Origin: Laetmonice hystrix
Taxonomy: Eukaryota
Length of the DNA stretch: 64,000 bases
Assembly: GCA_965235115.1 (NCBI GenBank)
Contig: OZ249436.1
Coordinates: forward strand, 7,132,001-7,196,000
Direction of reading: 5' to 3'
The translations under genes and the position numbers were made by a program. Each line of letters opens with the position of its first letter. Position 1 is the first letter of the stretch. The notes under the pieces are model-generated. The model did no database searches and was not told where the DNA came from. It saw only the letters and a program-made list of their open reading frames with translations. Shown piece by piece: positions 6,203 to 45,820 of the stretch.

Positions 6203-6220
6203 ATGACCGGGGGGAGGGGG
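6203..6220 (+). CDS. Candidate alternative N-terminal exon MTGGRG
   Basis: gccATG, 18 nt, GGG|gtgagt, phase 0. Confidence 0.3.
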
Positions 6221-6447
6221 GTGAGTGAAACATATCAGTCTTGTGACCCATGCTGAGTAGCAGATATTCGGTTCACCGTAACTGGGCAATCATCACCTTG
6301 TCCTCGGTTAAAATCTGCCTCAGTCTGTGTTAAATATCTAGGAGACAGCCGGACTCCTGGTCAGGTGGCTGCCAGGAATCCGTCCCAATTTTTGGGAGTC
6401 TCGGACTCACGGGCTCCCGTCGAAATCGACCCCTGCCTGCTGATTTG

Positions 6448-6705
6448 TAGAGCTGGGACGATTTATCGATACAATCGTGAATCGTGATTTTTTCACTGAC
6501 CGATAAGATTTACGGTTCAAAAATTGTGAATACCTCAAACTGACATTGCGGCCATGTTCTCTATGCATTGCACTATTGCTCAATTTACTGGTATCCCCCT
6601 CCAGAGCAAACATCAAAGAGAAAGAGAGTGATATGGCATTTTCATGGAGCAAATAATATTGGGATACGTATCGTATTGTGAACAGAGTGTATCGTCCCAG
6701 CCCTA
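6448..6705. mobile_element. hAT-type MITE
   Basis: TIR TAGAGCTGGGACGAT / ATCGTCCCAGCCCTA with perfect 8-bp TSD CTGATTTG (6440-6447, 6706-6713). Confidence 0.88.
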
Positions 6706-7554
6706 CTGATTTGTGAACTGTGCATGTCTGTGACCTTTTGTTTGGATTGTCATAGCCTATCTAATAATTATTCTATAATTTCTGACTGCTACTTTGAAAA
6801 AATGTTGATTCTAAAGTTGAGTTGAGAGTTCTCTCTGAATTAAATCAGAATTCATTAGGCACTAAGTAAAAGTGTACTGTATTATGGTTATGAAATAGTA
6901 TCACACTGCAATTTGCAATATATAATTAGCAGTACCACCCACAGGTATGATGCATTCCTACTCTTGACAGTCTTGTGGAAGTTGTGTGGCTGAAAATATT
7001 TGTTCACAAAATTAATACAAATCAATGGTCTTGACTTTTTTTCAAGTAACTGGTAGCCCAGAGAGAAAAACTGCTGGATTAAGCATTTAATTTGATAAAG
7101 ATTTTTATTTTTACCACCATCACATACATAGTCGTCCTCTTTCCCACTGCTTTTCCTTTTATAGGTTTTCTTACAAATAGTACAGTAATTAAAAAAAAAA
7201 GACTTTTAGGGAAGAAACCTGACTAGAGACCTGTGATATTTTCCCCAGTATAAATGAAGCTACTTAAAAAAATGGTTAGAACCACCCCTATTTAGCCACA
7301 TCTAGGGCCCCAGTCCACCAGAGAGAAAAGATTTAGCTGGTAGCCCATTGACTTAAGCTAGTCTTAGTAGACACAAGTAGCCTGACTGGAGAATTCAGTA
7401 GCCCTGGGTGTCAGGCCACTATAGAAAGTCAACTCTACTGCAAATATTAGCTTTACTTACTGCTTTGTAAAAATTGCGGTGTAATTTTTCCCTCAAAATT
7501 TTGGACCCTGGTCATTGTGTCTGTCTTTCATGATGTCGTCTTTTTGAATTTCAG

Positions 7555-7721
7555 ATCTATGGACCTTTGTTAATCGAGTTCTTTAAAGCTTCAAGTTGGG
7601 TGTCACCCATTTGTGGTGACCGATTCCTTTTTGGCGGTTGGGCCCCCCTTGTACGTGGTCATTCAAGTCGATGCACGGATTCCGTCTGATCCTTTGTCGC
7701 AACTTGAAACAGCCATAAACT
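7555..7721 (+). other. Candidate non-coding 5'UTR exon of the plus-strand gene
   Basis: Good acceptor (tctttttgaatttcag|) and donor (CT|gtgagt); no phase-0 coding frame. Confidence 0.35.
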
Positions 7722-10700
7722 GTGAGTATAGCTTTTCAAGGTACATCAGAAACAGAATGTTACTAATTTCTGCCAAAATGCTGTGGCTAAGATCACCATC
7801 AAATGTCAGTTGGGACCAGACCATCTATATTTTTGCCTTGTGTTCATTTGAAAACTGCAACATACCAATTAAATATCCCATAATCCGTCATCACAATCAA
7901 TGAAAAAAACTCAGGCCCCTGACTGAGCACACAACATTCCAAAAGTTAATCCTTTCGACTTTAAACCAGGATCATTAGAACTACAAATGCTGAATTGGTC
8001 CACTAACAGTTTAAACATGAAGATTTTGTACCAGCATGCTTGTAAGTTATATGAAATTGTGTTGATTTTAAAACAAACTGCAGTTGCAGGTACATGCGGA
8101 ATGCAAAATAAATATATTGAAATTCAGCCACTCTGATTGAACATTGTTGAGCACTGTGAGTCTGTGACACCTTGACTTTTAAAATTTGGGGTGCACAGTG
8201 CAAAATCGGCCAAATTTGCAGGTGAACGGATTTTCGTTCTCTGCCTTTTCATTTTAGGTGAACCACATGTGAATGAAATGATTGTTCACATGTGACCCTA
8301 GATGATAGATCCATTGGGAGAGAAATTTAGAAATGAAGGCAGTGAAGAGAGTAATTGCATGCCATGTTTCAGTGTTCATGGTGTTCACAATAATACATTC
8401 ATCATATCAAGTTAGACCTCTGGGCCAAACATACTTGGCCACAAAATGACAAATGCTTGCAGTGAATCTTTCAAACATTTTAACTCAAAGTTGCACTGCA
8501 AGGGGGCTTGTTTGGAATGAATGATAGGAGTGTGTGTTGCATTCCAAGGGTTGCAATGTTGATGTGACAGCTGGAAAAAGGTACTCTGAATGGATGTACC
8601 ACTATTGTACATGTTTAACAAAAAAGATTTGTGAGGAAATCAGGCCTTGAAGCTCATCTTCTAGCAATATTTGGCTCACTCTTGGAGTAAGAAAGCCCTG
8701 TTAATTTATCTCGTTAGACATATCGCTGTCCAATGATGAACTTGGTTGTGGATGAAAATCTCAACCAAATACACGTATATTGAGATCTATCATAACGGGA
8801 GACTCAAGTCAAGACGCATGCGCAACAGGCTTTCCAAGCACATCTACATGGCAGCAGCACTGTCATGCCAGTCCCTGCTGTAGCACATAAGCATTGGTTT
8901 GGATAGGATGGCAAAGTTCTAATCTGTGCAAACCTGTATGCTGTAACTGTACATAATTATTAAGAAATTTCAAATTTCTAAATCCTATATCTTTAGCTTT
9001 TTAAATTGTGCAGAAACAGACTGCATACGGCCACCATTTGTTGAGGCTTAGCCACAGTTAACTTAGGGGGCTAATCAATCTGGTAGTCAACGGCCATTAT
9101 CCAGTTAACTTGTAATCAACATAGATTGGATTGATACAATAAGCTCTGCAGTCTGACTGTGTCCATAGTGCTGCATCCACGGTTGATATTTATACCAATA
9201 TAATTTACAGACAGGAGAAAGGGCAGTGATAGGAGTGATGAATGGAATTTGACCAAGGTGGTTAGTTGTACTGAATTGAGGTACGGTCTAAGTGTACATA
9301 TCCACGGACTGTGAGTGTGAGTAGTGATCAATACTGCACCTGCCGCGGCATGAACACAGTGCTGACTGCACAGGCAACAACAGCAGGACTGGTATTTTTG
9401 TGGCATGGTCTTTATCGCAAGAAGGCCTGCTGGTAAATACCAGTAAACCCTGGTTGTTATGAGAAAGCCTGCTGGCAAATAACCACCTCACGTTGATATA
9501 ATACTGGACGGGTAACTGATATATTCATCACAGGAGGGCCTGCTGAGATTGTGGGACCATAGTGCATAGTGCTTTGGTAGGGTAAGCGTACTGGCAAATA
9601 TCCAAGTCTAAATTTAGATCTCTTGATGGTATAATAGGCTATTTTAATTTCATGAGATATCCTATGCTTATGGCAAAAACTGAAACATTATTAGTACAAG
9701 TCTAACATAGAAATATTTGTAGGAGGTACATCTTGGAATTGGAAGACAAATTGCTTCATGGTAAAGATGAATATTTAAGTAATTTAATAGTAATTGTGTT
9801 CTAAAATTTTCCAAGAAAGCACTTCTCATACGGTACATGAATTGAGATTTCTTTAAAGTTCTAACATAAATAAACTTAATGAGCCAAATTTAACATAAGA
9901 TTGATGATTTTATAGGAATGGTCAGTTTTGAAGTACAAGACTCAGCTAGGTTATTACATAGTGACATTTAAACCTGCAGGACAAGATATGGAATATTAAT
10001 TATGGCAATTTACGCATAGGGTGCTGTACTAATATTTAATAAACCTGTAAAGTATAGTTTTCAGAATAGGAATGAGTGTACAATTTTGAATGAACAGATA
10101 AGTGCATCCTGTTTTTTGTCCAGACCTGTCCAGGCAAGCACAATAACGTTACCCAGCCTAGAAATGACTCATCAATCATGGCTTGCAATGAATGAATTAA
10201 TGACATAATGTGTAAGATTAAAGAAAAAGAACCTATTTAGTGTTTAAATAGGTGCAGTATTGCCACAGGGGTCAGGTGGATGTAGGGAAATATCAGGTGA
10301 ACTAGTAAGGTTAGATCCCTGCCTCAGGCTTGCTCTAAAGAGGTCAGTGCTTGGCCCGGTCAGGTCAGAAAATTAGATTGAAAGTCTTGGAAACCTTAGA
10401 AATATGTAACATGTTCAAAAAAGTACATGGACTAGACGGACATCAACACCCTCTGTTTGATATTAGGTGATCTTACTTCTAGAAATGGTTTGGTCTCGTT
10501 ATGTTTGGCTACATATTGGCATTGCCTACAAAACTGTGAGAGAGCCCTGCTGGGGTTTTAGGTGAGAAACAGATGCTGCCACAGATCTCGGGCAGATCTG
10601 CAGACTAGAGTAGGATTACCTATACCCTCATTATCCCATCCCCCCCCCCCCCCCCCCAAAGGGGGAAATGGCATTTTGAAGTTATTATATTATTATTTGA

Positions 10701-12435
10701 CCAGATTCATTAGGCCGACTGGATGTAAAACTATCTTGAGGCTTAGGGCCGAAGGGCCAGTGAGGAAGAGGTTCAGTTATTTCAGAGACAGGCATCGATA
10801 ACGCAACTGGGTATGTTGGTCAGGTGGACCCTGTAGCTGGTTTTTATCCCCTGCTAAGCAGCAGGCAATAACATTGATCGCGAGAGCCCAGGCAAAAGCT
10901 CGCCTCAGTAATACTTGCGACCACTTGCTATTTTCCCAGGATCATCAGGGCAGCTTATACTTATTCTCCAACATGATAGTGGTCATGTGTCACTTGTGCA
11001 CATTAACTGTATAGTAATTTTACTTAAAAACTACCGGTATTTCTGACAGTTTACATTATAAGGACGCAGTCTATTATCTCAATTTAGTCAATATTTGCAC
11101 ATGCCGGAAAATGCTTGTCAAATTCCCGGTAAATAATGATAAAATTTATGATCCTAGTATATAAATCGCTTATTACTGATAAAAGATAGAATTTGGTCTC
11201 TGATGATGTAATATTACGCCGACAGCCTACATGTGCCCAGTATATTATAGGCCTAACATTTGCTGATAATAGGGGCTGATTTATTGGAACTTGGGACAGA
11301 TGGGAATTGTTTCCTGGGGTAAGGTATGTACATAATCCCCCCAATACCAGGATGGCCAATTCCTGTTGCTCCCATAGCAAGTTTTATGGCATGGTCGTGC
11401 AAGGTTGGCATGATAAAGGGTGGATCCACTTTGCAGACGTTTGATAGTCACTGATGTCAAATTGTGACTTGTAAAATTGACATCAATATAGGTGGAGTGG
11501 TATTTAGATTATCTGTGTTTGTAAAAAGCCTTGAATGGTATTCATAAACTGACCCCAACATTTTAAAGGTTGCACGGACTAAAATGTTTGCTGGTGATAA
11601 TTGCTGACATTTGAAGTCATGACCTCACTTGCAGCCCAACGGAATAGTATTATGATTGTGTCAGTTATGTGGAACTCAAAGGACCACAGTTATCTGTAAG
11701 CACTATTTTATCTTTGAGTGCTGCATCCAAATCGAGCAGATAATGCCTTGCCATGTGTAACTTGATACAGTTTAAAATATCTAAATAATAACAGAGGGGA
11801 ATAATAGTGGTGCAGACTAGATAAGCGTACAGGTAACCGTTTGTCAATAAAGTTCTAGAATTTGCTACCTTGGGGGGACTGTGCACTAATGGCTAAAAAG
11901 CGCACAACAGGACAATAATCATTTATCTGGGCAACCATTGCTGCTTCAACTTGACTCAGTTATCTAGCTGCCATCAACAGATGAAAAAAGAATGTGGGGA
12001 AAATCGTAAACCATTAGGTTTTATTAGTTATTACCGGGGTTATTTCCCATGGTAACTTCCCCACAAATTTTTGGGCAGGGGTTTAGGTTAAGGTCAGGGA
12101 TAGGGATAGCATAGCCATAGGGATTATATTTTTGGGAGGTGTAGGGAACCGGGTTAGGGTAAGGCATAAGGTCAGGGCGGTTGATCTTTACTTCAACCAA
12201 ATTTCGTGGGGTTGAAGTTATGATGGGCAACGTACCATTACCAGTATACATGTGGTTCAGCTTCGGATTAATGTAAATTATAGGTTTTGAATTAGGTCAT
12301 CAAAAGTTGTGAGTTGTTTGCCCTCAAAAGTTCGCTGCCTTTGTTTGTTGAAGGGTGTTGGCTATTCTCAACCCTTAGCTTCAGTGTGTATGAGAGGATC
12401 GTTGCTGTGTGCTACAGGTGTTGGTTGTGTTTCAG

Positions 12436-12555
12436 GTTTATTTGCCTCTACTGGCGGTACAAGCCGTGTGGATGGGCAATGGCGTAATGCCAACTCCGTA
12501 CCTGTGTGGCGCTGTTCCTTCGGTCACCATCCCTGACATGGCACACCCCACGCAG
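12436..12555 (+). CDS. Candidate alternative N-terminal or cassette exon (...MGNGVMPTPYLCGAVPSVTIPDMAHPTQ)
   Basis: Acceptor tgtgtttcag|, 120 nt fully open, ATGs at 12472/12487/12538 in frame, donor CAG|gtaaga, phase 0. Confidence 0.55.
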
Positions 12556-15500
12556 GTAAGAAGGCATTATTGTTCAGGCAGCTTATGACAACTTGCTCAT
12601 GACATTGACAGTCATATTTGAAGAGAAACTCGTGGATGAGTACCGGTAAGCTAGCAGTATGGACAACCATCCCACTAATAAAATTTATTAAAACAAAGTT
12701 TTTTAAGGCTGCAAAAGCAGGAATCTTCAGAGGTCATAAGATTTCTAAGTTCCAAATTTTCAAGGTTAGTGCCTGCAGGTATGATCATCTTTAATCTGAC
12801 TATCGCTAATTAAATCATGCGCCGTTCAGAGTCGTGAAAACGTCGGGGTTTATAGCATGTGTATCAGGTATCAAAGTACCAGTTGAGAAAATGTGACTTT
12901 TTTATTTCCTTCATTAGTTCTACTGCATGACTTTTGTTTTTATGTTGTACTTGTGACTCCCTGGAGTTGTGTTACTAGTGGCCTCTTGTGAAGTACTATA
13001 TACAGTTTTGTAAACTCTGCTATCGGAATACACGCTACAGAAGTTCTCATTATATGTACATGTATATGACCCGCATTCATTGGAATCTATTTTATCACTC
13101 TTTGATTTCATGGACAAATTAAGTGTGAGGCAACTAGCATAAGATTATCTCACTGATAACAGAGGCTAGAACTTGGTTAGAAGGTTAAAGTCTTGTGGAT
13201 CTCTCTCGTTCTAGTAGTAGTAGAATAGTTGTGTACATAAGTACTAGATGTAGTTGAATAGTTCTTCACGTACGTTCTCTGATTCAAACCAAGACGTAAA
13301 GCCAAGTAAGTTGAATCAAAAATGCATTGGAAATTAAGATTTGAACCAGCAACTGAAGTTTAGAGTTATACAGGCATAAACAGGTGGTGGACACTTTGGT
13401 CCTACATGTATCGGTACGGATTCAGTTATTCACAGTCCAACTTCGTTGAAGGTGCAGAGCTCTGCAAATTTATGTTGGAACAAGGTGAATGTCGGTCAGA
13501 TGGGGAATCCGCAACAACCAACGAAGATTAAGATTATTGGATTAGAGACATTTTGAAAGAGAAACATTCAGAGCGTTCTACATTCTTTAAAGCTTTAGAA
13601 ACCACCATTAGGTTAACCTGTGCGAAAAACGTGATTAGTTGTCAGTGTGACTTAATTAACTCAAGACTACTTAAGATTTGATAAATACTTTTGTGTTATT
13701 TTGGGCGGGGAAAAGAGCACATCTTGACCTCCTTTTGAGAAATCTGCTGAAGATTTAGTCACCAACTGAAGTAGCAACAAGCAGAGAAAATAGCGCGGCC
13801 AAAGGCTAGTCAAAGTCTGCTGCTCATTTGCAGTGGAATGAATTAGCATCTTCATCAGACATCACCGCATGCACATAAAATGCCAAGAGACCCACTTTAA
13901 AATTCAAATTGTCTGCAAATGTCAAATTAAATGGTGACAGGTGAAAATGTCTTTTTAATCTTATCACATGTCAGTGATTCTTTGTAAGTCTTCAGATGAA
14001 GCGAGATAGTGATGTCTATTAATACTGATAGCTCTTAATGAAGAGAAGTCAAGGACAGGCGCATTGAAAACCACAGTTTGAAGTTTTAGTAAACTATATG
14101 GTGGTTCTGTAGACAACTAATGCAATAATTTCGAAAGAGAAATTATTTGTTTAAAAAAAAACACAACTTCTCCGTACTTTCATAAAGGTGAACTTTGACC
14201 ATTTATTCTATTAAATCATATTTTCCCAGACATTTTGGAAAGTGGTTTCACATTATCTTGATAATCAGATTAGAGGAACGATTGCATGCTCCCTTTGTGC
14301 TTCCCCTTTCATATCTCCACAAAAGTTGCTCCCTCTGATTAAAAGAAAGCGTTTTATCTCAACATAAAGCTTTGAATATCTGTTAGCCAGCCCCACGGGA
14401 TTGTCAATCCATTATAATGGCAATTTTAATCAAGATGAAGTTAAATATTTGTGGTGCACCGTTGAAATGTTGTGTTTGTGCGAGGCCACTCATTGATTGC
14501 AGTGGCTTGTGTCTTTCTCTTTGTGGCAGGTGTCGTTTGCGTGAGGTGTACCTAGCTAGAGCTGTTGACAGGTTAGTTGCTACTTCAATTTCCACCTAGT
14601 GGAAATCACTGAATTGACACCTGGTGGACATTCCATGTACTAAATATTGAGATAAATGCATTTGGTGCAAATCTTTGGCATGGGAGGCCCCAGACTTTTT
14701 AATTTTTCTATATCGCAGCCTAGACTATTCAGAAAAAAATATGTTTAATAAATGGGGTCTTTTACCCGCACTTATGGGGCATTAAGCCACAATCCAATAT
14801 AATATTGTATTTGGAGCCTATTGCACCCTGGGGCTTAATGCAAGTCGATAACCGCCTCCCTCCTCCCAAATTTCTGCACCATAATTCTGTGTATGTTTGG
14901 GAGTTGAAAAATTTCCAACCTTCAATTTTCACGAATAAGAAGGCTCGGCTAATTCTATGCCTATTTCATGTGCTTATGCTTAAAAAATATTTGTACCGCA
15001 ATTTATTGTGTGGTCAATGTTGTGTACGTGAGTTATGTGCATACTCCTTTAGGTGTTTTCTTGGTTTCCCGTCAGTTATTCGGCAAGTAGTTGCAATCGT
15101 TTATTTCAGGGGAATATTTCATCACTCAGTTTGCGTCAGAAAACTTGATGTTGTGTGAAGTTTTTTACACTTTCATGGTTACAAGATAACGAGGATGCCA
15201 TGCCCTCCCGCCTACCTTTGTCACAAAGGATTGGTTACCTTGGAATGTTTACAACAAATGCAATGACATCCTAAACGTGCCAATTATTTTTGGTAGCCAT
15301 AATTAGTCATAACTATCTGAGTGTGTGCTATTATAGATGCAGAGACAATTTGGAATGCAATAAATTTTTTATTTCAGGAGCATAACATAAGTACACAACA
15401 ATGACTGAAGTTATGCTCGGAATGTAAGCAAACCTGTGATAAACCTTGGTATGTGAAAGATGATTGACATTAACACACAGATGAGAAGTATCTATCTGAT

Positions 15501-17585
15501 GTACCCGTCAGCCATGTCCCCCTGGGACACAACCGTCAGAGTCAAGCTTGACAGGTTCTCTGTAACTGTTATGATATTAGTACTAGTAAATGATCTTCAT
15601 CCTGGCCATAAACATGAGGAAAGAATGAATGGTGGAATGTTGATAGTGAAATCAGCCAGTTTGGACAATCTCCAGGAAAATGATGATAACTGAAGTTTAA
15701 ACATCTGATTCTCTCGTTAGTGAAGCTCGATCCTGACCAGGTGTATGCAGGGAATGGTTCGCCTCCGCTGCACTGTTTCGGGTGTACAAGGGACTTGATA
15801 AATAGTTTCAAAACGGAGGATGTCCGATAGGACAAGATACCGTGTACATACAAAATCTGGGACCTGCCTATGTGTGACGTACTCGTACATTGTATTCGAG
15901 CAGAAACAATGACCAGAGCATTATTGGAATTGCCTTGGTAATAATTCACTCGCTCACTCCCACACTCTGTCAGGTATGGAAGTCAACAGTTGCCAAGATA
16001 CCTGGCTACCATTGATATGTAAATATCTACTCCCACTATAATATAATAGCCAGAGGTCAAATTAGTAGTCAGCGGTTATCCTGCAGAATCCGCTAGCCTA
16101 GTTGTCCCACAAGCTCATTAAAAACTCCCTATTTTGTCATTAGCTGCGACCATGGATTCATGTGACCAACAGTAAGTTATACCTGATATACCTGGTATAC
16201 AACTGGAAACCCCAGATTACCTTGGGTTGCACAGGTATTATGGCTCATTAACGTTGATTGGGTGTAATGTATGAGACCCTAATAAGGCCGCCGCCATTCG
16301 ATGCCTTGTTAGTTGGCCTGATTAGGTAGATAAATATTGAGTGGAAGTATCCCTAGGTTAACCGAGTAAATAGGGGTAGCGGTTGACCGGAGTACCGTCT
16401 CTCAGTGCAGACATTAGGTCAACATCTCACATGGTAATATAACTTGATAAGATAAGTACGGTCTTTGGTACGATGAAGATTATAACAGGGATGCCTGGGG
16501 AGGATGAATTAGGAGTAGTAATGATGGATTATTGTTAAAAGAAATGATATTTTAAAATATCATTAACTGATTAAGATAGCGAAGTATAACTGTCAAATGT
16601 TGAATACAATTACATATAGCATAGCGGAGTCGCTGTGACTCTCAAAGAAACCGGCCCACATATCCGATATCCGTTTTCCCAGAAGTTTTCTGGAATTGGA
16701 TACCGTGAAGGCAGCAGCCCGCCAGGTGGCAGGCGCGCATGACGGCAGCATGCTCGAGGTGGCCGGGTAGTATAACGTCAGCAAGGTGACGGCTCCCGGC
16801 TTCAGGACGCTGAACAAACAGTGCAGCATGTGGCATTCCAGGAGAAGTCACCTGGGATTTGGAATCCCATGTTTGGGAATACCAGCCTGGATCTTCCCAT
16901 GATAATCTCCTACTCATACTCCTGGTAGTAGTAGTCTGACGAACTGATCTATGTGGTGCTAGTCTTAAAAGTGGAGTTAAGACTTCTCGAGAGACTTGTT
17001 ATTAATTACGTAATGTCCTCTAAAATACTGTTCGTCAATGGCAGTGGCACTGAAGTTCTGTGAACTCGGCTCTTACATTGAGGTACATATATTCATGAGC
17101 TTGAAGTAGCACCGTATTTTCTGATCAGCCGTGGTAAACAAGAATATAGGATGACAAGAACAGCGTGGGATTGAGGAGTCAGTTTGTGGTCTGTCTCTGA
17201 GGCGCCCTGCCAGGCGTGCCAGTTGTGGAAATCAAAGGAATCCTGTCGACCTTCGAGTAACCGTAGGAGTCCGGTCATTGTGGTAAACAAGGTGAGGTGT
17301 GCAGCTCAGATTGTATACCACACCTCCGACCACTGAGTGACTCTCAGTGGGACAGCTGTCAAAGTGTCTCATCCCGGACTACAAACACTGAGGTGACGGA
17401 GCTCCTTGTTAGATCGTTATAGCATCAGAGGTTTACCACCATCAAACCCACGTGTTCAAAGGTTGCTTGGACACAGCCAGCCAGCGGTGCAGACGATGAG
17501 AATGGTGTAGTTGTACCACCCTGATTTTTTGTACCCGTACATTGTGGATAAGTTGGACGTAACATTAACCACTTTAGGAGGAACA

Positions 17586-17642
17586 ATGTTGGAGGCACCT
17601 CTGGCCCCAGTGAGGGAACTAGTGTCGGCCTTCACACATCAG
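17586..17642 (+). CDS. Candidate alternative N-terminal exon MLEAPLAPVRELVSAFTHQ
   Basis: acaATG, 19 codons, consensus donor CAG|gtgagt, phase 0. Confidence 0.6.
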
Positions 17643-20600
17643 GTGAGTCTTTACCAGGCTTCGTCTCCAGGTAACGGTTGTTTTACATAACTTGAGGTCA
17701 ATCATCATGTAATATTGGGATGATAACTCAGCGGTACCAGCTTAGACAGCTGGAGAACAGATGGAAACTATGGAGTTGCGAGTTAGTACGGGAGGGGTAG
17801 TTTCATGTCATGTGAATATTAGACCAAAGTGACGTCTCATCAAATGCTGCGATTCCTACACAAGATTCCCGGATGCAGGTTACGACATTGGCAGCAATTG
17901 ATTGGCAGTGAGTCTGAGGCCTTCAGGGTGTATTGAATATTTTAATAGGACATCAGACTAATGGATATGGCCAGAGTTAAGTTCAGCAATGTTGAAATTT
18001 AACGGTTATCATGTCTCTTTCACCCATTGACACCATTTCACATGTTTCAACGTATATTTCCTTTACAATTGAACTGCTCTCACTCGAGTGTGGCATGTGC
18101 CTTGTTTCCGCAACACTGCTTCACAATAGTCAAGACAAAAACAGGGAGAAATTGAAGCGCGGGGGGGGGGGGGGGTATCCTTACCCCCTTGCCCCCCCCT
18201 CGACCTGCTACTGAATAGAGTTAGTGAATAATATCAGGGTGTGATCGTGTTGGTGGAGTGGCCCCGTTTGGAGGCTGGGACCCATGGACTCCTCCTGCAC
18301 TACATTTGTGTAAGGTGGCGCCCCCTATGTAAACCTAGGCATACTACAAATACCATCCAGCCATAGCGATGAACGGCATTCGGTGTTTCTCAATAAAGAA
18401 CATTTGTAATTAAACAAGTGATTGAAGTTCTTTCAAAAAATGAAAATTATGATATAGGCAGTCGACCGTAAGTGGAAATTATTTGCCATAAACCTCTGGG
18501 CCAGTATGGCTGAATGCCTATAGTTGCTACCTGAGTGACATGTCGCAACATAAACAAAATTGCATTATATTTTTATTCATGTTGCAACTTCTCCAATACA
18601 GCTCGTAGTTACTCTGATAAGAAAGATACGTTGCTAGTAACATAATGGGTAGGTGGCATGTTCAGTTATTAGCGATGTCCTAATACAGACTGAACGCATT
18701 AGATGTCCACCAGCCTTGAGTGCAATGTGAATGTTTTATAAAGAAGTGGGCATCTACCGTTGCCATCCATTTCTCTCGAGTACATATAAAGCAGTCCAGC
18801 CTGCAAAGCTGTCATTAGTCAGTGTATTCTTTATATTTGGGGAACCAGTGCTGCATGACGATTGTCAATGTGTCGGCTACCCCGGGACAGGGAAACATTA
18901 AGGATATCCGTGGGGCAAAACTGGTGGCAGACGTACTGAGGCTAGACGCCATAAATCGCCATTTTGTTCTACGTGTACATTTCAAATATCTTATGATCTT
19001 CTGACATTTCATAATTTCGCAAGCTTTTATCTCGTTGATTATACATAATTTAATCGAAATTGACATTGTTTCCAATGTAAAGAGCTGCGTTTGGCTTTAA
19101 TTGCCTTCAGTTCACTTTACCTCCTGAAATTTATAATCCAATATCGGGAGATGTCCTTGCATTGGCTGTCGAGAAGCGGAGACTTAACTCTAGTCATTGC
19201 TGGACTCACAAAACGCAGATTAGAACCGGAGTGTGGGTTTCCTTGCTGATGATAACAATGTCATAATTTTAAATGTGCTATGTCTGGCAGGAGACCTAGT
19301 AAATAATTATGTCACTTGCCATGGTTTTGCTTGGACTTGTCCAGAATGAAGTGAACTAAATAAAACCAGATAAGAAACGTAATCCAGTATGTTTTGTGGC
19401 AGTGTTTGCATATGTCGTCTATTGGTTAATCCCAGGAAACTGATCTGACTTAATTTAAGGACACAGACCGATGAGGATCAAGTGGATATTTTTCAAACAT
19501 ACATGGCTACTCGTAGATCACACCAATCGATCACAATCTTTGCATACAGTGTTTGTGGTATACAGAACATCATTATTGAGGAAAATGTTTGCCTAGAAAC
19601 AGGACAAAGAAAGAAACAGCTGACCGAGAGGAGAGAGTGGTGACCCTTCCAATACAACTACGGTATGCCTGAGAATACACCTGGTCCATAGACAGGCTTG
19701 TAATATTCTGATTGACAGCGCCACCTGGATCGGTACACCACCTGGTGGCCACATATGTCATTGCAACTACACATGCAGCTACTCAGGAGCACATCACTTT
19801 ATTACACACACGGATCCCTTTCCTCCCTCCCCCTCCCCTTTTTAGTAACTTTTTTAGTTTAATTATTTATTTTTAAAAAATTTTTTTATTGGATTATCTT
19901 GTTAAATAACGATCTTCCGATAGTCGACAAACGTATAAGTGTAAAGATAGAGTACAATGTTCTTATCATTGCTTCACAAACGGTTTTGGGCCATGTGTAT
20001 AACATTCTGAAAAGAAAATGGATCTTGTCAACAAGAAGACTTGGTTAATACTGGTAGATGTCCTGTACAGTTCAAACCCCTTGGAATGTTCTGTATTTTC
20101 ACAGATCGTCAAACGGATTATGATTTTGATAAATGATTAGATTAATTTTTCTCAGACATATAGATCAATTTATAATTCAGTTATAATGAGAATTTGGTGG
20201 TCCTAACATGCGTATAATATAAACGCTGTCCACTTATGTTAAATAGTGGAATGGTCGCTAGATATTTGATAATTTATACAACTGGTACTTAGCGGCGGTT
20301 GACATGGGGTCACATATGGTTATTGTCAGACGGGTAGGGGTGCCCTGTGACTGGATGCATTCTTGTTCCATAAGGTAACAGCAGGGGATTGAGTCACCTG
20401 TGTGGCAGCATATGATGGACAGTCAGGACAGATGGCAGGACTTCCCAAGGTTCAGTGTGCCTGCTCTGTGGGTCGTGACAGGTTTTGAAAACAGGTTTTG
20501 AATGAATGCATGAAACATGCAATGACGACTCCCGGCTGTTCTAGGCATTGTCCGTACAGCTTATCTACACGGCAGGTCATTGTAGACCAGCACTGAATGT

Positions 20601-22285
20601 GTTGGGGAATTCCACTAATTAAAAAAAAAGGCTAGGGGAGTTGTGTAGTGCTGTCAGATCATGAAGCTAAAAAGATATAACCTTGGATCGATAAGCTGAC
20701 TCATCAGGCGCGCAGTCTGGGTCACTTACCTAGATATGACTGTTTGTCAAAATACTATGGGACTCTTGTCACTATGGCTATGGGGCCAAATCTAAAAATT
20801 TAAAACATTTAAAAAAAATTGTGGTTGAATAAAACCTATGGTTCTTTTGAAAACGATTCAACTGAAGAAAAAGGACTTGCGCTCTCCCAGTCCGAGATCC
20901 ATACCACAGATATAGCTAGACTCGGTTGTAGTTGGTTGATCGATCCGTTCGGGTTCAAGGAGAGAGAGTACTGCTGACTACAGAGACCAGGACCCAATTT
21001 ATGTGGCCCAATGATTGGTACCTAAGTGTGCGAGATACTCCCGGGTCTATGTTAGATTGAAGCATCTTTTGAGAAACCGGGAAGCCTGGCAAGGAAGGTC
21101 TGGGCTCTGGCTGAGATGGCAGTCGGGCTGTGTTTTTCTGGAGTACTGGTTGCCATAGCAGCACGTGAACATGGGATATGGTTCAGCTGGATGTTAAAAT
21201 GAGAAGGATGTGGACGAAGATTCAGGTAGGTCTTGTTGTCTGGGGTGATTGTATTGTGACCAGTGCTGGAGTGCGCCGGTGTCTTGTCGACACGTAGGCA
21301 GGAAGCAGCTCTGACAAACTGCACGTAGGCCATGGCAGCAGGCCGATCGCTCAGCAGTCTACTAGCTGTGTTATACATGTAGATCATGGAGCTACCTTAT
21401 CAGCTGATTCACCATGATCGGCTGTGATTGAGACTGACCGTGTTTCAGGCCAACCATGGCCGCCAGATAGGCAGACAGCGCAGTCAGCAGTGTGACAGCA
21501 ATATGAAAGCCGCCAGCAGAACTGAAGCATTCATATGACATTGGCAGACCGAGGATTTCTCGGTGCTTGCCATTTATAATAGATGTTTGAACAGCGCAGA
21601 TGGAACTGTGTTGGTCTGCACGTGCCTGACCTAATTACATTCCATGCTACCTTGGCGGAGGATGATCCTGATGGTTCTGATGTTTCTATATGGGTGATTT
21701 GATGGGCTAACATGGTGCCTGCTGACCACCATATGTCATTGTAATGGGGCCAGTATCAGCGGCTGTAATAAGATCCCGGTGGTGCTGCCAACATCTGAGG
21801 CCAGCTGGCAAGGGTCAACACCCTAGCGGCCTGGGCTGAGGAGTCTCTGAGAAAGTCAAGCTGGTAGGGGTGGGGGCTGGGGTGGGGCCCCAAGGCCAGG
21901 TCATTGCGGTGGAAATTTTGAGAACATTTGGATTTGTAAAAGCCGCTTACAAAATCTGCCAAGCTTTTGGGCATCCATCGGGAATAGCAACGTCGAGATT
22001 GTGGAAATTGAAGTCGAGCCAGTGCCCAGTGCAAATATGTTTGCTCGGCAGCAGTGCCACTGTACTTATCTAATCGTAGTAAACGCTCCATGTTGAACTT
22101 GAGCCCCCCCCCCCCCCCAAAAAAAAAAAAACAAAAAAAAAAAAAAACATTAAAACATTTGGAGTCTCCTTCAGTTCTAGGAGAAATAGCATGTTTCATT
22201 GAGTGTGCAACATTTACTGGAGACTGCTGATGATGACAAGCTGTCTCTGGTGGGCGCCGAGGACCGTAGAACTGCTGTCCGTGTC

Positions 22286-22352
22286 AGCGATGTTAAAGGG
22301 GTAACTCCCCGGGTCTCCAGCGATGTTAAAGGGGTAACTCGCCGGGTCTCCA
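22286..22352. repeat. 2 x 33-bp tandem duplication
   Basis: CAGCGATGTTAAAGGGGTAACTCSCCGGGTCTC repeated. Confidence 0.85.
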
Positions 22353-23423: not shown

Positions 23424-23491
23424 GTAATACTAACAGGCGTCAGCAGTTGAGGGATAAGTAATACTAACAGGCGTCAGCAGTTGAGGGATAA
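23424..23491. repeat. 2 x ~34-bp tandem duplication
   Basis: GTAATACTAACAGGCGTCAGCAGTTGAGGGATAA repeated. Confidence 0.85.
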
Positions 23492-25513
23492 ATGAAGCCC
23501 TGAGCGTTGAAGCCTAATTCCCAGCATTATTAACAGTTTCTGAACATGACGAATAGATTTTGTGTGGCCAAGACTTTATCTATATTTCATTATAAGTTCG
23601 GGAGGACCGTTCTAACTGAGGTACTTACACTGTGCTGTACAAGACGGGCAGTCAGTCTCTATATGTTCCTTGAGAGGGCAGCACCAGTCCCCCCACACCC
23701 CCCAGGCTTCATGTTGTGTTTACAGGAAGAACTGGGGTGAGTGAGGAGTCGGTGAGTGACGTTTTTATGTCCTGCCAGTCGGTATCCAAGGCCATCTTCA
23801 GGTGAAAATAAAGTTATTTGTACTTTGTTCTGTCCAAAGTTCTGCCGTTACCCACGGTATAGAGGGAAGATTGTAATTAGTAACACAGGTATGAAGGAGA
23901 TCATTGAGCAGCCGCTTGTATCTCGAGATATTATATTGACAGGAATGGTGAATGATTTAAAACAGGATTTACTTATCTCTTTATACAGGTCACAGATTGT
24001 TTAGACGTTAGAGAGCTTGCGTCTTGATTGGGTGCTAAACATTGGAAACTTATCGTGTCAGTGTCGCAATGGGGGTAACTTTATTGGCAGTCATTTCCAC
24101 TCGTGATCAACGGTATCAGCCATGCTGTTTTATTACCACATATCCAGGTGTTAGATAAAAATTAGAAATGCTCTCGTATATTCAGAAAGCCTGCTTACCT
24201 ATTCATGGTTGGTATAGTCATGAATATGTGAAAACAGTAGGAGATATAACTGGTCTGTGAAGGACTCGGTCGCAGGGAGTCCAAGGGAGAACCCTGTAAA
24301 GATGGGTGTTTGGAGTGACTTCCACTCAGAGTACGTGGTGGCATTTACAAACTAGAACAGGATCAGCCTCGGGAATCAACCGGGAACCAGCTCATTGATT
24401 CCAGGGTATGCAAGGTCGATGGTGCCTTAAAAAACAGCTTGTTAAATTACTGAATGTGAAAGTGAGACGACATGGGGTTGAGACGTGTGTTACCCCCGCC
24501 CGTACTCCAACCCGACTCCAAGGTGTGGTGAATGGGGGGAAGGTGTGGGAGGTCTTGGAGTCACGTGAGAGAGCATGACCAACGAGGTGGGTTTCCCCTC
24601 ATTGTGGGTCGGACCAGTCGAGGGGCTGGCAGCCGGGCCTCTGGTACTTCCTACACACGGCTACAACACCACAGTCCGGTCGTAAATACCACCACATGGG
24701 TACGCTACCGAACCGAACCCTCCGGCAACATGACAGTTGTGAGCTGCAGGCAGTAACGGCCAAGTTTGACGAACCAACTGCCAATAGGACAGTTGTACAA
24801 TAGTGGCCTGTGATTCTGATTTACTTGTGTAAACGTATCAAACCAAGCGTGCACTGGTTGGTATCTGCAGTCTGCATGGATAATCTGGTGGATTATTGCT
24901 GGTATTGGCTGTGTGGATGACGTGGTGGTGCAGTCAGACAAACTGTCCACCCGGTGGGAACGGGCCAGACTGTAACGGTGAGGAAATGTTATTGATTGCC
25001 TATAGTGGTGTACCGTAGCCACCCAGCCCAGCCAGCGGCCCGCCACAGCATACAAAGGAAGCGTTACATGTTCGTTACACATGCAAGCTGGCCTGGACGT
25101 CCTGGACCACAGAGTTCCCTATATCCCCACACGTCAGTCTGCTGTGTAAGCCCGCCTTGACGCACAGTCACAGGCACATTGAGGAGTGGGAAGACAGCAT
25201 CACAACCCGTCATCACGACATCAGCAGCAGCAGCATCATCATCGTAGGTACCAGTGACTGTCACTGTAAAAACACAGGAGAAAACCACCAGAGAGGCTCA
25301 CTCAATAACAGAGGACGGCAGTGGACTTGTGGTATAGGCGTATGATCTGGATGATATCAACATATCTCTCTCCACGCCTAAGGCCAGATATTTTACTCTG
25401 GCTGGTCCCTGCCTGTCATATTGCACATGATATAAAACCAATCAAGATCTTGAACAAGAAGGGGTATTAGGTCGGAGATGAAGAACAATCAGCTGTGTTG
25501 TAATCTCTCAACC

Positions 25514-25555
25514 ATGTCTCTCAAACATATCATCAAGATGTCCTGCTTTACTGTG
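25514..25555 (+). CDS. Candidate alternative N-terminal exon MSLKHIIKMSCFTV
   Basis: accATG, 14 codons, GTG|gtgagt, phase 0. Confidence 0.55.
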
Positions 25556-34967: not shown

Positions 34968-35051
34968 TTGGATGGCTGCCGCACACACGGATCATCAAAG
35001 ATTCTGGAGAACAGAATCCCCAAAGTGATCATGACAGTTGCAGTCTGGAAG
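34968..35051 (+). CDS. Candidate alternative exon ending MTVAVWK (ATG at 35031)
   Basis: Possible acceptor cctgtag|, 84 nt open, AAG|gtaagg, phase 0. Confidence 0.5.
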
Positions 35052-35429: not shown

Positions 35430-37150
35430 ACCAGAGCGGTACCTACCACGCTGGTGTCTGTGAGGGAACATGTACCAGAGCGGTACCTACCACGCTGGTG
35501 TCTGTGAGGGAACATGTACCAGAGCGGTACCTACCACGCTGGTGTCTGTGAGGGAACATGTACCAGAGCGGTACCTACCACGCTGGTGTCTGTGAGGGAA
35601 CATGTACCAGAGTGGTACCTACCACGCTGGTGTCTGTGAGGGAACATGTACCAGAGCGGTACCTACCACGCTGGTGTCTGTGAGCGAACATGTACCAGAG
35701 CGGTACCTACCACGCTGGTGTCTGTGAGGGAACATGTACCAGAGCGGTACCTACCACGCTGGTGTCTGTGAGGGAACATGTACCAGAGCGGTACCTACCA
35801 CGCTGGTGTCTGTGAGGGAACATGTACCAGAGTGGTACCTGCCACGCTGGTGTCTGTGAGGGAACATACCAGAGCGGTACCTACCACGCTGGTGGTATCT
35901 GTGAGGGAACATGTACCAGAGCGGTACCTACCACGCTGGTATCTGTGAGGGAACATGTACCAGAGCGGTACCTACCACGCTGGTGGTATCTGTGAGGGAA
36001 CATGTACCAGGGCGGTACCTGCCACGCTGGTGTCTGTAAGGGAACATGTACCAGAGGTACCTACCACGCTGGTGTCTGTGAGGGAACATGTACCAGAGCG
36101 GTACCTACCACGCTGGTGTCTGTGAGGGAACATGTACCAGAGTGGTACCTACCGCGCTGGTGTCTGTGAGGGAACATGTATCAGAGCGGTGCCTACCACG
36201 CTGGTATCTGTGAGGGAACAGGTACCAGAGCGGTACCTACCACGCTGGTATCTGTGAGGGAACATGTACCAGAGCGGTACCTACCACGCTGGTGGTATCT
36301 GTGAGAGAACATGTACCAGAATGGTACCTACCACGCTGGTATCTGTGAGGGAACATGTACCAGAGCGGTACCTGCCACGCTGGTGGTATCTGTGAGGGAA
36401 CATGTACCAGAGCGGTACCTACCACGCTGGTATCTGTGAGGGAACATGTACCAGAGCGGTACCTGCCACGCTGGTGGTATCTGTGAGAGAACATGTACCA
36501 GAATGGTACCTACCACGCTGGTGGTATCTGTGAGGGAACATGTACCAGAGCGGTACCTACCACGCTGGTGTCTGTGAGGGAACATGTACCAGAGCGGTAC
36601 CTACCACGCTGGTATCTGTGAGGGAACATGTACCAGAATGGTGCCTACCACGCTGGTATCTGTGAGGGAACATGTACCAGAGCGGTACCTACCACGCTGG
36701 TATCTGTGAGGGAACATGTACCAGAATGGTGCCTACCACGCTGGTATCTGTGAGGGAACATGTACCAGAGCGGTACCTACCACGCTGGTATCTGTGAGGG
36801 AACATGTACCAGAGCGGTACCTACCACGCTGGTATCTGTGAGGGAACATGTACCAGAGCGGTACCTACCACGCTGGTATCTGTGAGGGAACATGTACCAG
36901 AGCGGTACCTACCACGCTGGTGTCTGTGAGGGAACATGTACCAGAGCGGTACCTACCACGCTGGTGTCTGTGAGGGAACATGTACCAGAGCGGTACCTAC
37001 CACGCTGGTATCTGTGAGGGAACATGTACCAGAGCGGTACCTACCACGCTGGTGGTATCTGTGAGGGAACATGTACCAGAGCGGTACCTACCACGCCGGT
37101 GTCTGAGGGAACATGTACCAAAGGTACCTTCCACGCTGGTATCTGAGGGA
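35430..37150. repeat. Minisatellite, ~39 copies of a 44-bp unit with 47-bp variants
   Basis: ACCAGAGCGGTACCTACCACGCTGGTRTCTGTGAGGGAACATGT head-to-tail with no spacers. Confidence 0.97.
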
Positions 37151-37426
37151 AACTGCTGAGTTCAGTTCTTCACATTATTAACAGTGACTGGACCCGATTG
37201 TGGTGGAGAGGATCCAGCTGAGATATGAAGGACTTCTTGGAAGATCTCCAGGATGTTGCCGGAAGTCCTTAGAGAACTTTGACAGCTGAGCCGGACGGTA
37301 TTAGTATCATGAGGGTGACACTGCACGTATCCGTCCAGGGGTCGGTGGGACTAATCCAGGTATCGGCAGGCTGGATCCGGTTAGCAGCAGTAGCAGTAGC
37401 AAAAGCAGCAGCAAGAGTCTGAAAGG

Positions 37427-37620
37427 AATACTGCCCTCCGAAGAGCGACTGCAGTATCTGCAAAATTGTGAAATTGATCAAATCGACCCTAAAGATGATG
37501 CTTCAGCCATAGTATTTCAACGAGTAGTTATGGTATAGAATGCCATAACTACTTTAGGGTCGATTTTTATTAATTTCACAATTTTGCAGATTCTGCAGTC
37601 TCTCTTGGGATTGCAGAATA
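37427..37620. mobile_element. Fold-back MITE-like inverted repeat
   Basis: GACTGCAGTATCTGCAAAATTGTGAAATTGATCAAATCGACCCTAAAG versus CTTTAGGGTCGATTTTTATTAATTTCACAATTTTGCAGATTCTGCAGTC. Confidence 0.8.
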
Positions 37621-39981: not shown

Positions 39982-40321
39982 AGGTGCTATTCGTGAAAAA
40001 AAGTTCAATTTTTTTATTTTTTATTTTGTTGACGTTTATGTGATCCCACCTATCATGGAAATAGATTCACAACAAAGGAAATCAAAATTTTTCATGGATA
40101 ACGGCACAAATGGGGCTCTCTCAGAAGGCCTGTGGAGACCCTGACACGCCCCACCATAGGAAATGGCTCTATCTCGGTGCGCACCGAGATATGTTTCAAA
40201 TGCTGCACACAAACTAATAGAAGGTTTATCAGGCCAATGGTATCGGTAGGAATTTTTTCTAGTACTATGTGCACAATGTATGATAGGAGAAATGCCATTC
40301 TGTGCGAGACGAATAGCACCT
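39982..40321. mobile_element. Kolobok-like non-autonomous DNA transposon
   Basis: TTAA|AGGTGCTATTCGT ... ACGAATAGCACCT|TTAA: perfect 13-bp TIR, TTAA TSD, purine-purine start. Confidence 0.8.
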
Positions 40322-40423
40322 TTAAACATGTCGGATACCGTCGAACAATAGTCGGCCTTTTAATCACTGTATACAGACGGATTTTTGCAAATGTTCGTCG
40401 TCTGCGGCGGGCTTAAAGGCCCA

Positions 40424-40474
40424 GCCACACATACCGACCCGATCGTCTGCGACGATCGGGTCGGTATGTGTGGC
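40424..40474. repeat. Perfect 24-bp inverted repeat with 3-nt loop
   Basis: GCCACACATACCGACCCGATCGTC-TGC-GACGATCGGGTCGGTATGTGTGGC. Confidence 0.95.
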
Positions 40475-41834
40475 GATTCGTTGAGATGTTGATGTTGAGA
40501 TGTTTACGACGCGACGGTTCCATCGGCAGTGCACAGCGGGCGTCAAACGCAGCATGCGTCGTTTATCAACCATTCCGCATGGGGAACCACTGGCGTTCCG
40601 ACGATCGCGTCGTCGTCTGTCTGACCGGCCCATGAAATACGGGGCGACGGAATCGTCTTTACCCGTCGGGGACTATGCTGGTTTATGCCCGACGATCAGT
40701 CACTCCGCAGTCAGTTCTAAGTGCAATCAGGATAATTCAAAAATAAATTCGAACCGACATTTTTGAATAACGTATGATCACACGGTGGCTGACATCGACG
40801 TCTAATCTTGAACCGAAGTGATGAACTTCGCAGACATGAGGAAGATTCTAAATAAAAAGTAATTTTAAAGCAGTTGTTTAGATATCAAGATGTTTGTATT
40901 CCCAAAACGACGTAGTACAAAAATACCGGAAACTGAAGAATGGAGCATTTGTTATGATATCTAGAACAAAGACGATAAAGATTGCAGATAATGATATCAA
41001 ATTCACGGTCTGACCCACTTGTGGCAGGACCGCCTGTAAAACTGACCCCTCGATATGACCCAAGGTAGCGTTTGAAACCCAAGTCTAAGTCTAGATGAAC
41101 AAACATAAAGAAAACCACGAACTTCAACACTGGAGCCATTAAGGAAATGAATGTATTGAATTATGGTTCCTTGACGATGGATTTTCGTATGCATTGACCC
41201 TTGTTTGGAAGGAGAAAACTACAAAGAGTTTCTTTCACAGGAACAATGTCAGCCTGATTCAAGATATTCGAAATTAAAAGACATTTCTTGTTAAATATGG
41301 TGCGTGATACTGTCTCCAATCTCTCATTGCCATTCGCTCCATGTAAGGAACGTTTTAATTCGCGTCTTATATCCTGCAGAGGCTTGTTTTCACGTGGAAA
41401 TAAGTGTTGTTTATCACAAGCGCTCCAGGCTTTAGTCAATGACGCAATGACTTATCTATATTGCATCAATCGACATGCCAAACCTTACTTTAATCAGCGT
41501 TAGGAATATTTGAAGGAATGTCGTCAACTTGGCGTCAACTTGGCGTCTTTCATGCCTCGAGGCATTACTTCTGGAGAATATGCTTTGAGGTCTAACTATA
41601 CCAAAAATACCCTGCGGCATTTTACTTGGGAGGAGGGGGGGGGTCTTGTTTCCAGTTAGTGTAGAAGGTGGGTCACATTGTTTTGTTGGTGAGTGACTCA
41701 CAGAATACTGGGGCCACCTGACAAGGTCTGGGAATGTTGTAGCACGTTGTTTACAGCTCCGTCCAACAGACGGGTGACCCTGGCTATCTCATTGGAATGT
41801 GTATGTGACACCTTCACGTAGCCTCCCTTCCCGC

Positions 41835-41894
41835 CACAACAAGCCAGCACCACGAGTTAAGTCACAACAAGCCAGCAGCACGAGTTAAGTCACA
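41835..41894. repeat. 2 x 28-bp tandem duplication
   Basis: CACAACAAGCCAGCASCACGAGTTAAGT repeated. Confidence 0.85.
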
Positions 41895-43937: not shown

Positions 43938-43952
43938 ATGAACACCCCGTGG
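43938..43952 (+). CDS. Candidate alternative N-terminal exon MNTPW
   Basis: aggATG, TGG|gtaagg, phase 0. Confidence 0.3.
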
Positions 43953-44926
43953 GTAAGGCCCAGCCTCCCACCCACTGAACATAAACTACCCCTGCCTAGC
44001 TTAACATTGACAACACCTGATCTGTGGTTGGCTCGGTCAGGGGTTGTTAGGGAACGCGAGCGAGTATAAAGAAACGATGGTTTAGTTATGTGTTACACTG
44101 CAGTGATGGTTTCCTGGAGGGAGGAAGTGTTCAACAGTAATGAGGTTGGTGTCGGTATGTGTGTGTTTCTTGCCCCAGTGGTTTCAGACAGGGAGCTGTG
44201 CGGCTGCTGTCAACTCGCCTCGACCGGTGTGAGTTTGTACGCACAGTTGCTGAATCAGCTGCAGTGATTACCACGCAGTTTTCACCACCGACTCGGTCTG
44301 AAGTCTGGCGGTGTATGTCGGCTGTGGTCTACCGCTGGTTCTCTGGTTTCTCAGGACACAATACTCGCTGTTCGCGGCGGTTCCTCCCCACCCTGACACG
44401 GATGCATTGCGATGGGCCAATGATCAACTCAACTTGTGGAGGTCATTACATCTAGTAGTTTCGATGTATCTATCACCTCCGGAAATTACATATATGCTGA
44501 AGGATACAGAATAACGTCTAACAAAGTTTTAAAAAATGCCACTTTTCGAGCATCGATCACTAGTGTCATCTATACATGGAGTGTTTGAGGTTGTTGTTCA
44601 CACCAGACAGTTTGATTAGCGGTAAGAAGCAGCCGAGCGTCGTAACCAATGAAAGGTGTGAAAACCAATCAAGGTAGTGGTCTCTATGAGGTTACCTGGG
44701 TACTTCAAGGTGGGGACTGCCTTCATGACTTCATATCAAGGGTGAAGTTGGAGCAGTGAGCAGCATACAGGCCCAGACTATTGAGGCTGTGTTAGAACTG
44801 AAGTCATTGAGAAACGTCAGGCTGTATACTGGTGTGTGTGTCTGAGAGAACCAAGCACCGAGTCAGTGGTACAGGCTCAGACAGAGTCTCGTTCAAGGTA
44901 CAGCTGACTTCATGTAACTGGTCGCC

Positions 44927-44938
44927 ATGATCCAAAGG
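44927..44938 (+). CDS. Candidate alternative N-terminal exon MIQR
   Basis: gtcgccATG, AGG|gtacgt, phase 0, ~700 bp upstream of the common exon. Confidence 0.5.
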
Positions 44939-45633
44939 GTACGTTTGTTTGTCAATACTGGGTCAGTCTGAGGTCAGGACATATTGTGGAGGCGATATAA
45001 CAACAAAGTATCACCCCAGGTAGGCCTACCTGCTACCAGGAGGATAATGAATACCTGTCTATGAACCAAGATATGAACTTGTACTGGCTGTACTGTAGGT
45101 AAGGTTGTACCAGTGAACTTGGTCCACAACTGCTGAGTGTTATGTCATAGTGGCCACTCAGTGGTCAAGTACTATATGCATGGTCAGCTCCACACTGGCA
45201 ACAGTGTGCTATCTGGTACAAACGTGAACGGGCCCCTATTAGTGTAACCCGAACCAAGACAACCTTTGTTGTAATGGGCGTATATATGTCCGGGAATTCT
45301 TTTTCCTTTTTATTTATTCCAGTCAACACAGAGTATAGGATATATGCAGGTTTTTTTCAGGAGAGAGATCGGTTTCAATATTTAAATTTTACAGGGCAGG
45401 CTTACTTTTTTTTAGGTTGACTTGCTGTTTTCGTTAATAATTATCAAAAGACTGATCTAAGGGGAAATTTTAATATGTTGATCTATAATATCTTTATTGC
45501 AGTCATATTTTGAGAGTCAGCAAAATTCAAGCCGGATCAGTACCATTCAGTGTGCCCACCGTTTCTAATTACTCGAAATACATAAAAGTGGAGACAGACT
45601 TATTAATAAGTGTTGTTTATTTTGTTGTCACAG

Positions 45634-45820
45634 AGCCAGGAGGTGGGAGGGGAGTCGGCCATGGATCGAATGAAGAAGATCCTCAGCTCACCCATGACTA
45701 AGAAACGAGCCATCTCCTCGAACCGCTACTTTGGCATTCCCCTGGAAGATGTCATCAAGAGAGAGGACTCTACGGTTCCTTTCCTTGTACAGAAGATCTG
45801 CATCTACATACAGACACATG
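45634..45820 (+). CDS. FAM13A: FAM13-like first common coding exon (SQEVGGESAMDRMKKIL...IQTHG); in-exon ATG at 45661
   Basis: gtcacag| ... G|gtgagt; FGIPLE RhoGAP start. Confidence 0.9.

Follow-up and report, generated by a model that had tools for sequence, protein, structure and literature searches.

We analysed a window of 64,000 nucleotides (nt) from Laetmonice hystrix (GCA_965235115.1, OZ249436.1:7,132,001–7,196,000, forward strand; all positions below are counted within the window), which by homology holds a FAM13-family RhoGAP gene preceded by a series of short candidate leader exons. An earlier note on this stretch had called the gene a FAM13 RhoGAP, and that identification was borne out. 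The first constant exon (45634..45820, plus strand), which encodes nine leader codons, the core ATG at 45661, a basic patch and the start of the RhoGAP fold, has one protein match, P0001, a 1051-residue protein with PF00620 and PF26116 that is 79% identical across the whole exon. Two further plus-strand exons match PF00620 in Pfam: RhoGAP exon 2 (47198..47407; E 1.7e-16), which is 91% identical to P0001 and contains an EGIFR motif that we take to be the arginine finger, and RhoGAP exon 3 (47794..47977; E 6.8e-15). P0001, a close relative, aligns to the window exon by exon over residues 6–677 of 1051 (tblastn), and this search also located about 11 other FAM13 exons between 51398 and 62519 on the plus strand, with the gene extending beyond the window end. 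The top named relatives of P0001 are FAM13A/B-like proteins of molluscs, annelids, hemichordates, nemerteans and others (~50–57% identity), so that orthology to named FAM13A/B runs from the window exons through P0001 to these proteins. RhoGAP exons 86–90% identical to those of the window also occur in two other assemblies (P0249 and P0250).

Nine open codons separate the acceptor at 45634 from the core ATG, which has a strong start context. Phase-1 or phase-2 input at this acceptor would lead to reading past the core ATG before any stop. P0001 has a 10-residue leader ahead of residues homologous to the nine entry codons, and the nine-codon spacing after an acceptor-like stretch recurs in four other gene calls that apparently read through the acceptor; among relatives, the length of this nine-codon stretch is conserved, as is part of its sequence. 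The earlier proposal that acceptor 45634, with its nine open codons, takes phase-0 input is therefore upheld by the sequence and by the P0001 leader at the same junction, and we read the first constant exon as accepting phase-0 coding input. The locus thus has a common constant exon with an acceptor taking in-frame input, as in plectin and KChIP.

We compiled orthologue leaders for 22 species sets from cluster lists with at most 15 members listed per cluster, and the counts below refer to members listed; fragments, partial proteins and clusters without a named species were left out, and a cephalopod set was kept. Two or three unrelated coding leaders share one tail in 12 of the 22 sets, two of which (sea urchin and Lingula) depend partly on unnamed or fused records. 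The maximum was three coding leaders, in Haliotis cracherodii, and a form beginning at the core Met was present in 17 sets. Two genera share both hemichordate leaders, and for abalone as well as for limpet the leaders recur in a second species.

Among the candidate leaders upstream of 45634, a 120-nt exon at 12436..12555 (plus strand, phase 0–0) is homologous to orthologue leaders, as judged from profile searches and alignments. It holds the second of seven segments proposed earlier (segment 2, 12472–12555), has in-frame ATGs at 12472, 12487 and 12538, encodes a P-x-hydrophobic-C-G motif that leaders of starfish, mayfly, tick and brachiopod FAM13 also carry, and ends at a donor scoring 11.3 (scores here and below come from generic donor and start matrices). 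When the 8-mers of 45 orthologue leaders were compared across phyla with the window excluded, the top two of 833 pairs were starfish–mayfly RPV[LI]CG matches. A blind profile of these two rows, starfish and mayfly, ranked segment 2 second of 56,496 nine-residue six-frame stretches of the window, and profiles of three, four or nine rows ranked it first, also without starfish; the tick and brachiopod rows of these profiles were picked after segment 2 had been seen. We also made anchored end-to-end alignments of leaders, using 46 phase-0 window peptides, 1236 controls and 36 queries, with junctions estimated for single-leader sets. Segment 2 was the best match for Acanthaster (32), Patiria (27) and Owenia (13), with none of the 1236 controls scoring as high, and for Ixodes (17) and Lingula (17), with one control as high. 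In a six-frame scan made leader by leader, segment 2 alone recurred (3 of 45 leaders, at ranks 1, 8 and 9); the segment at 43938 appeared once, at rank 5. Four other pairings were discarded as multiple-testing noise given the 36 queries: 44686–44709 with an abalone leader (corrected 0.04), 44140–44154 with a limpet leader (corrected 0.07), 44927 with a 4-residue sea-urchin leader (corrected 0.11) and 29271 with a spider leader (corrected 0.04). Nineteen metagenome loci (best 74% identical) lay on short contigs, and none was used.

The Cys-motif exon is probably internal. An acceptor at 12435, 36 nt ahead of ATG 12472, scores 6.1 (within the best 0.6% of AGs), and another lies 18 nt further upstream at 12417; both are in frame and open. 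If transcription started further upstream, an out-of-frame ATG at 12390 would overlap the two starts of the exon. Because of these acceptors and of ATG 12390, the exon is more likely internal than first, contrary to the claim that all seven segments are first exons. Consistent with an internal position, one Cys-leader protein is common to several accessions in starfish. The exon is single copy, and among the variants listed, 12558 A>G at donor +3 retains GTRAG.

The seven segments start at 6203, 12472, 17586, 25514, 35031, 43938 and 44927 and are 12–84 nt long. All seven were described correctly as ATG-initiated and ending in phase 0 at GT donors: each consists of whole codons with no stop and has GT directly after it. 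A purine at −3, said to be present in every segment, is replaced by T at the first ATG of segment 2 (12472) but is found at its second (12487). The seven are a selection, since 11 of the 62 donors scoring at least 8 pass the ATG/purine test in phase 0, with 21225, 23315, 24522, 24586 and 43710 as further passing phase-0 donors outside the seven. By joint score of start and donor the order is 17586, 12472, 35031, 6203 and 25514, followed by 21225 and 24586, with 44927 and 43938 falling among control values. No acceptor above 1.2 lies within 300 nt of five of the seven; segment 2 has the acceptor scoring 6.1 and segment 1 one scoring 3.8.

Copy number was assessed from DNA-like contigs of three sequencing runs of one sample, covering 5900–25899 (four of the seven segments; 40 of 410 variants listed). 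Segment 1 (6203..6220, plus strand, six codons) is doubtful: its donor scores 9.5 and its start context is good, but it lies in a high-copy dispersed repeat at 10 to more than 100 times single-copy depth, with a summed contig depth of 765–2538 at 6208 and 6226–11296 at 6188 compared with ~30–70 in single-copy bins. Some contigs carry a 1-base deletion at 6208, which could be an allele or another repeat copy. Segment 3 (17586..17642, plus strand, 19 codons) is a candidate alternative first exon with the window's strongest donor (12.4) and the top joint score; it is single copy, with no acceptor within 300 nt and no orthologue leader match. A very strong donor (11.0) without an in-frame ATG at 17291, 295 nt upstream of segment 3, may belong to a non-coding first exon of the same promoter. 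An additional phase-0 candidate at 21178..21225 (plus strand; donor 10.7, joint score 11.5) has three in-frame ATGs together with out-of-frame ones, and no significant match to orthologue leaders.

Segment 4 (25514–25555) can be extended to an in-frame upstream ATG at 25478 with G at −3, giving a single-copy candidate at 25478..25555 (plus strand; donor 9.3) with up to three Cys. A TATAAAA element lies at 25431, and the three ATGs that follow it before the donor all keep the reading frame; no orthologue leader matched. A likeness to a long Glandiceps leader, noticed by eye, was rejected, being absent from both the six-frame scan and the anchored alignment. Segment 5 (35031..35051, plus strand, seven codons; donor 11.4, joint score 12.2) is a candidate alternative first exon with neither an acceptor nor an orthologue leader match; a minisatellite (35430–37145, a 44-nt unit repeated 38.7 times) begins ~380 nt behind it. 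The two remaining segments, both on the plus strand, are less convincing: segment 6 (43938..43952, five codons; donor 8.0) is a weak candidate with a joint score of 8.6, below the 12 best control hits, and segment 7 (44927..44938, four codons, MIQR; donor 7.6) is weak to moderate, with a good start context and a joint score of 9.9. Between them, eight phase-0 codons at 44686–44709 end at a donor scoring 8.8 from a poor start context; the abalone leader is equally long and has four identical residues.

We next consider whether phase-0 starts are commoner here than chance would give, a check proposed by the earlier note; the test settings are not independent of one another. With a purine required at −3, donor cut-offs of 6–10 gave phase-0 counts of 26, 16, 11, 7 and 4, compared with 22.9, 14.1, 8.6, 3.8 and 1.2 expected from random upstream sequence (P 0.26, 0.35, 0.23, 0.085 and 0.028). 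With a graded start context of at least 0.5, the counts were 13, 12, 10, 7 and 4 versus 8.0, 6.1, 4.8, 2.2 and 0.7 expected (P 0.057, 0.021, 0.015, 0.004 and 0.005), an excess of ~3–6; at a threshold of 1.0 they were 8, 8, 6, 5 and 2 versus 5.5, 4.2, 3.4, 1.5 and 0.5 (P 0.19, 0.06, 0.11, 0.013 and 0.09), an excess of 1.5–4. Overall, phase-0 starts exceed the random-upstream null by ~3–5. Phases 0, 1 and 2 were represented 11:1:4 on the plus strand at cut-off 8 (P 0.003), and there was no phase-0 preference on the minus strand; across 15 settings, P for the plus-strand preference was 0.0005–0.046 with the purine rule and 0.02–0.44 without it. The start contexts of phase-0 ATGs before strong donors were better than those of controls (Mann-Whitney P 0.0006–0.015). 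The skew is due in part to too few hits in phases 1 and 2, with one phase-1 case observed versus 8.2 expected. The excess thus reached significance under the purine rule at the highest cut-off alone, was steadier with the graded start context and came with a phase-0 preference on the plus strand; it suggests several real leader exons.

We consider it likely, though well short of assured, that this FAM13 gene uses several short 5′ coding exons as alternatives, of which there are probably three to five, with promoter choice setting the N-terminal leader. A distal promoter near 4.7–5.9 kb, shared with the neighbouring gene, would give a non-coding exon spliced to the Cys-motif exon and then to 45634. 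Internal promoters of the 33-kb intron would give two to four more short leaders, for which 17586, 35031 and 25478/25514 are the best candidates, and non-coding first exons would yield a leaderless form starting at 45661. All isoforms would keep the RhoGAP domain. In-frame leaders would be tolerated, while out-of-frame ATGs would create upstream open reading frames overlapping the core ATG, and this would account for the scarcity of phase-1 and phase-2 hits.

Several observations weigh against a gene with multiple leaders. Most of the orthologue isoforms are automatic models at the protein level, and first exons therefore cannot be told from cassette exons among them. The phase-0 count reached significance at one of the five cut-offs under the purine rule, and likewise at one of five with the stricter start-context threshold (P < 0.05). 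The phase-1/2 deficit exceeds what a few real exons explain, so chance contributes to the skew. The Cys motif is not among the listed mollusc, nemertean, Owenia or P0001 leaders, the other six segments had no significant orthologue leader match in 36 queries, and the leader of P0001 has no counterpart in the window by six-frame scan or anchored alignment. No promoter motif was shared or enriched at the segments, where counts were at background, and for all seven the splicing is predicted from genomic sequence.

An alternative is that the Cys-motif exon is the sole real coding leader, included or skipped, with the other six segments being chance pairs of ATG and donor or non-coding first exons. 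Homology support is limited to segment 2, chance gives between two and nine phase-0 hits here depending on cut-off, and 10 of the 22 orthologue sets, including both Cys-leader starfish, show at most one coding leader. Against a sole coding leader, the phase skew persists without segments 1 and 2 (9:1:4 at cut-off 8, P 0.014; range 0.003–0.11), the close relative P0001 bears a different, Cys-free leader, and a joint score of 11.5 is reached by 6 of 72 donors versus 3 of 399 control donor-phases. We regard a single coding leader as unlikely, if a serious contender. A plectin-sized array in which six or more of the seven segments are true alternative first exons is a good deal less probable still. 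All seven donors score above 7.5 with fair to good start contexts, and the excess could reach ~8 if the phases were exchangeable (11 versus a mean of 2.5); against this, the excess over the random-upstream null is just 3–5, segment 1 lies within a repeat, segment 2 looks internal, and no orthologue set has more than three coding leaders. That no segment is real, with the protein always starting at 45661 and the nine open codons present by chance, is scarcely credible: the core ATG does have a strong context and the cephalopod set consists of core-Met forms only (9 of 9), but against this reading stand the conservation of the nine codons in length, and partly in sequence, and the match of segment 2 to orthologue leaders. 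The idea of interchangeable N-termini is accordingly supported in part: orthologues swap leaders at this junction and phase 0 is in excess, but an excess of ~3–5 does not support the view that all seven segments are real. Overall, we conclude that this is probably a real but ordinary multi-promoter, multi-leader FAM13 gene. Many animal genes use alternative starts in this way, and alternative first exons are described for about half of human genes.

The earlier note also suggested that an N-terminal Gly or a Cys in the leaders might be lipidated. Gly2 occurs in one of the seven segments (one of nine starts considered), on a weak ATG, and this start fails the PROSITE-type myristoylation pattern that we took as the test; starting segment 2 at 12487 gives no Gly2. 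N-myristoylation of the window leaders is therefore not supported by their predicted N-termini. The RhoGAP domain is retained in FAM13C records of duck and goose (P0082–P0084, P0234–P0247). These records show a choice of two Gly2 leaders, with a Cys at around position 10–12 in either, and both goose leaders fit the same assumed pattern. Cys is present in segments 2 and 4 and is conserved for segment 2. That the conserved Cys is S-palmitoylated is a guess, and one somewhat more apt to be wrong than right; speculatively, a palmitoylated Cys with the basic patch behind it would keep the GAP domain of that isoform at membranes. Alternatively, the motif may serve in protein docking. The fullest version of the idea, in which FAM13 has an optional Cys tag, conserved across cnidarians, arthropods, echinoderms and this animal, that switches the RhoGAP to membranes through palmitoylation, combined here with a plectin-like array of at least five swappable leaders, we consider improbable. 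Searches of the open literature, which leaves out most subscription titles, turned up no paper on an RPV[LI]CG-type motif or on the leaders of invertebrate FAM13. A conserved Cys motif in an optional leader offers a handle on the subcellular targeting of this RhoGAP family, which is still poorly understood. In humans, FAM13 has been linked to lung disease risk and fat biology (PMC8836216).

The minus strand at ~1.6–3.3 kb carries a USP8_dimer gene in head-to-head orientation with FAM13, and this gene is likely the 5′ limit of FAM13. Its first coding exon (3135..3329, minus strand) matches PF08969 (E 1e-7) in open frames, with more exons down to ~1600, and it is presumably STAMBP/AMSH-like. Because of this head-to-head neighbour, the FAM13 5′ region probably begins at ~4.7–5.9 kb. 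We propose 4700..5900 as the likely shared promoter region, with plus-strand donors lacking an ATG at 4783 (score 8.8), 5432 and 5872 as candidate ends of non-coding FAM13 first exons. TCAGT occurs three times in the 400 nt before 5872 versus a mean of 0.66, and CpG observed/expected (o/e) is 0.84 in 4001–5000 versus 0.27–0.6 nearby. A minus-strand donor near 5010 may belong to a non-coding first exon of the neighbour, which a YY1-like motif near 5030, as we assume it to be, may also mark. At the seven segments themselves, the sharing of upstream 6-, 7- and 8-mers did not exceed that of randomly drawn sets of the same size (P 1.0), a TATA box was found at segment 4 alone, and the CpG profile had no peak at any of them.

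Elsewhere in the window, a CpG-rich patch at 40200–41000 (o/e up to 1.63) contains no candidate exon and could be either a young repeat or a promoter that is not on our list. High-copy dispersed repeats at 6100–6435 and 12046–12228 have summed depths in the thousands and many loose ends, the latter stopping ~200 nt ahead of the Cys-motif exon. A 92-nt unit repeated seven times with 96% likeness (45859–46506) begins 38 nt into the intron behind the first constant exon, and a candidate micro-exon of ~18 nt (57047–57063), running from a CAG acceptor to a GTATGT donor, lies in a large intron of the FAM13 middle region.

The closest counterparts of the proposed gene are FAM13 isoform sets in RefSeq: the FAM13A/B-like sets of Haliotis cracherodii (XP_071105549-65), Patella vulgata, Ptychodera flava, Glandiceps talaboti, Mizuhopecten yessoensis and Actinia tenebrosa, together with goose FAM13C. 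These combine a core-Met form with two or three short leaders, unrelated to one another, that join the shared tail shortly before the core Met. They differ in that at most three coding leaders are on record, as annotation-pipeline models, whereas the window leaders are predicted from genomic sequence. Human FAM13A differs in kind: alternative start sites 235 kb apart include or omit the whole RhoGAP domain (PMC8836216), whereas the leaders proposed here would vary while the RhoGAP domain stays.

Of the systems to which the locus was likened earlier, plectin is the better likeness, and UGT1A and the protocadherins do not fit; the earlier claim was overstated both in the number of leaders and in the likeness to tandem clusters. 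UGT1A, GCNT2 and the clustered protocadherins do place variable 5′ exons ahead of constant exons, as proposed here. In those clusters, however, the variable exons are large duplicates of close similarity, and every Ugt1 exon has a conserved motif upstream (PMC1885805), whereas the window segments are tiny and mutually unrelated (pairwise DNA score mean 19.0 versus 19.4 for random pairs; best peptide score 16) and have no shared upstream motif. Since the segments are unrelated to each other, the proposed arrangement is plectin- or KChIP-like, not UGT1A- or protocadherin-like. Plectin (PLEC) and KChIP similarly join unrelated short 5′ exons to one common exon, although in plectin the exons and their targeting are experimentally demonstrated, whereas here one exon, probably internal, is well supported. 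For KChIP1–4, variable N-termini give cytoplasmic, myristoylated, palmitoylated or transmembrane forms (PMC3973911). We therefore use KChIP1–4 as a working model for the Cys leader, with lipidation of FAM13 leaders hypothetical, although the protein is unrelated to FAM13.

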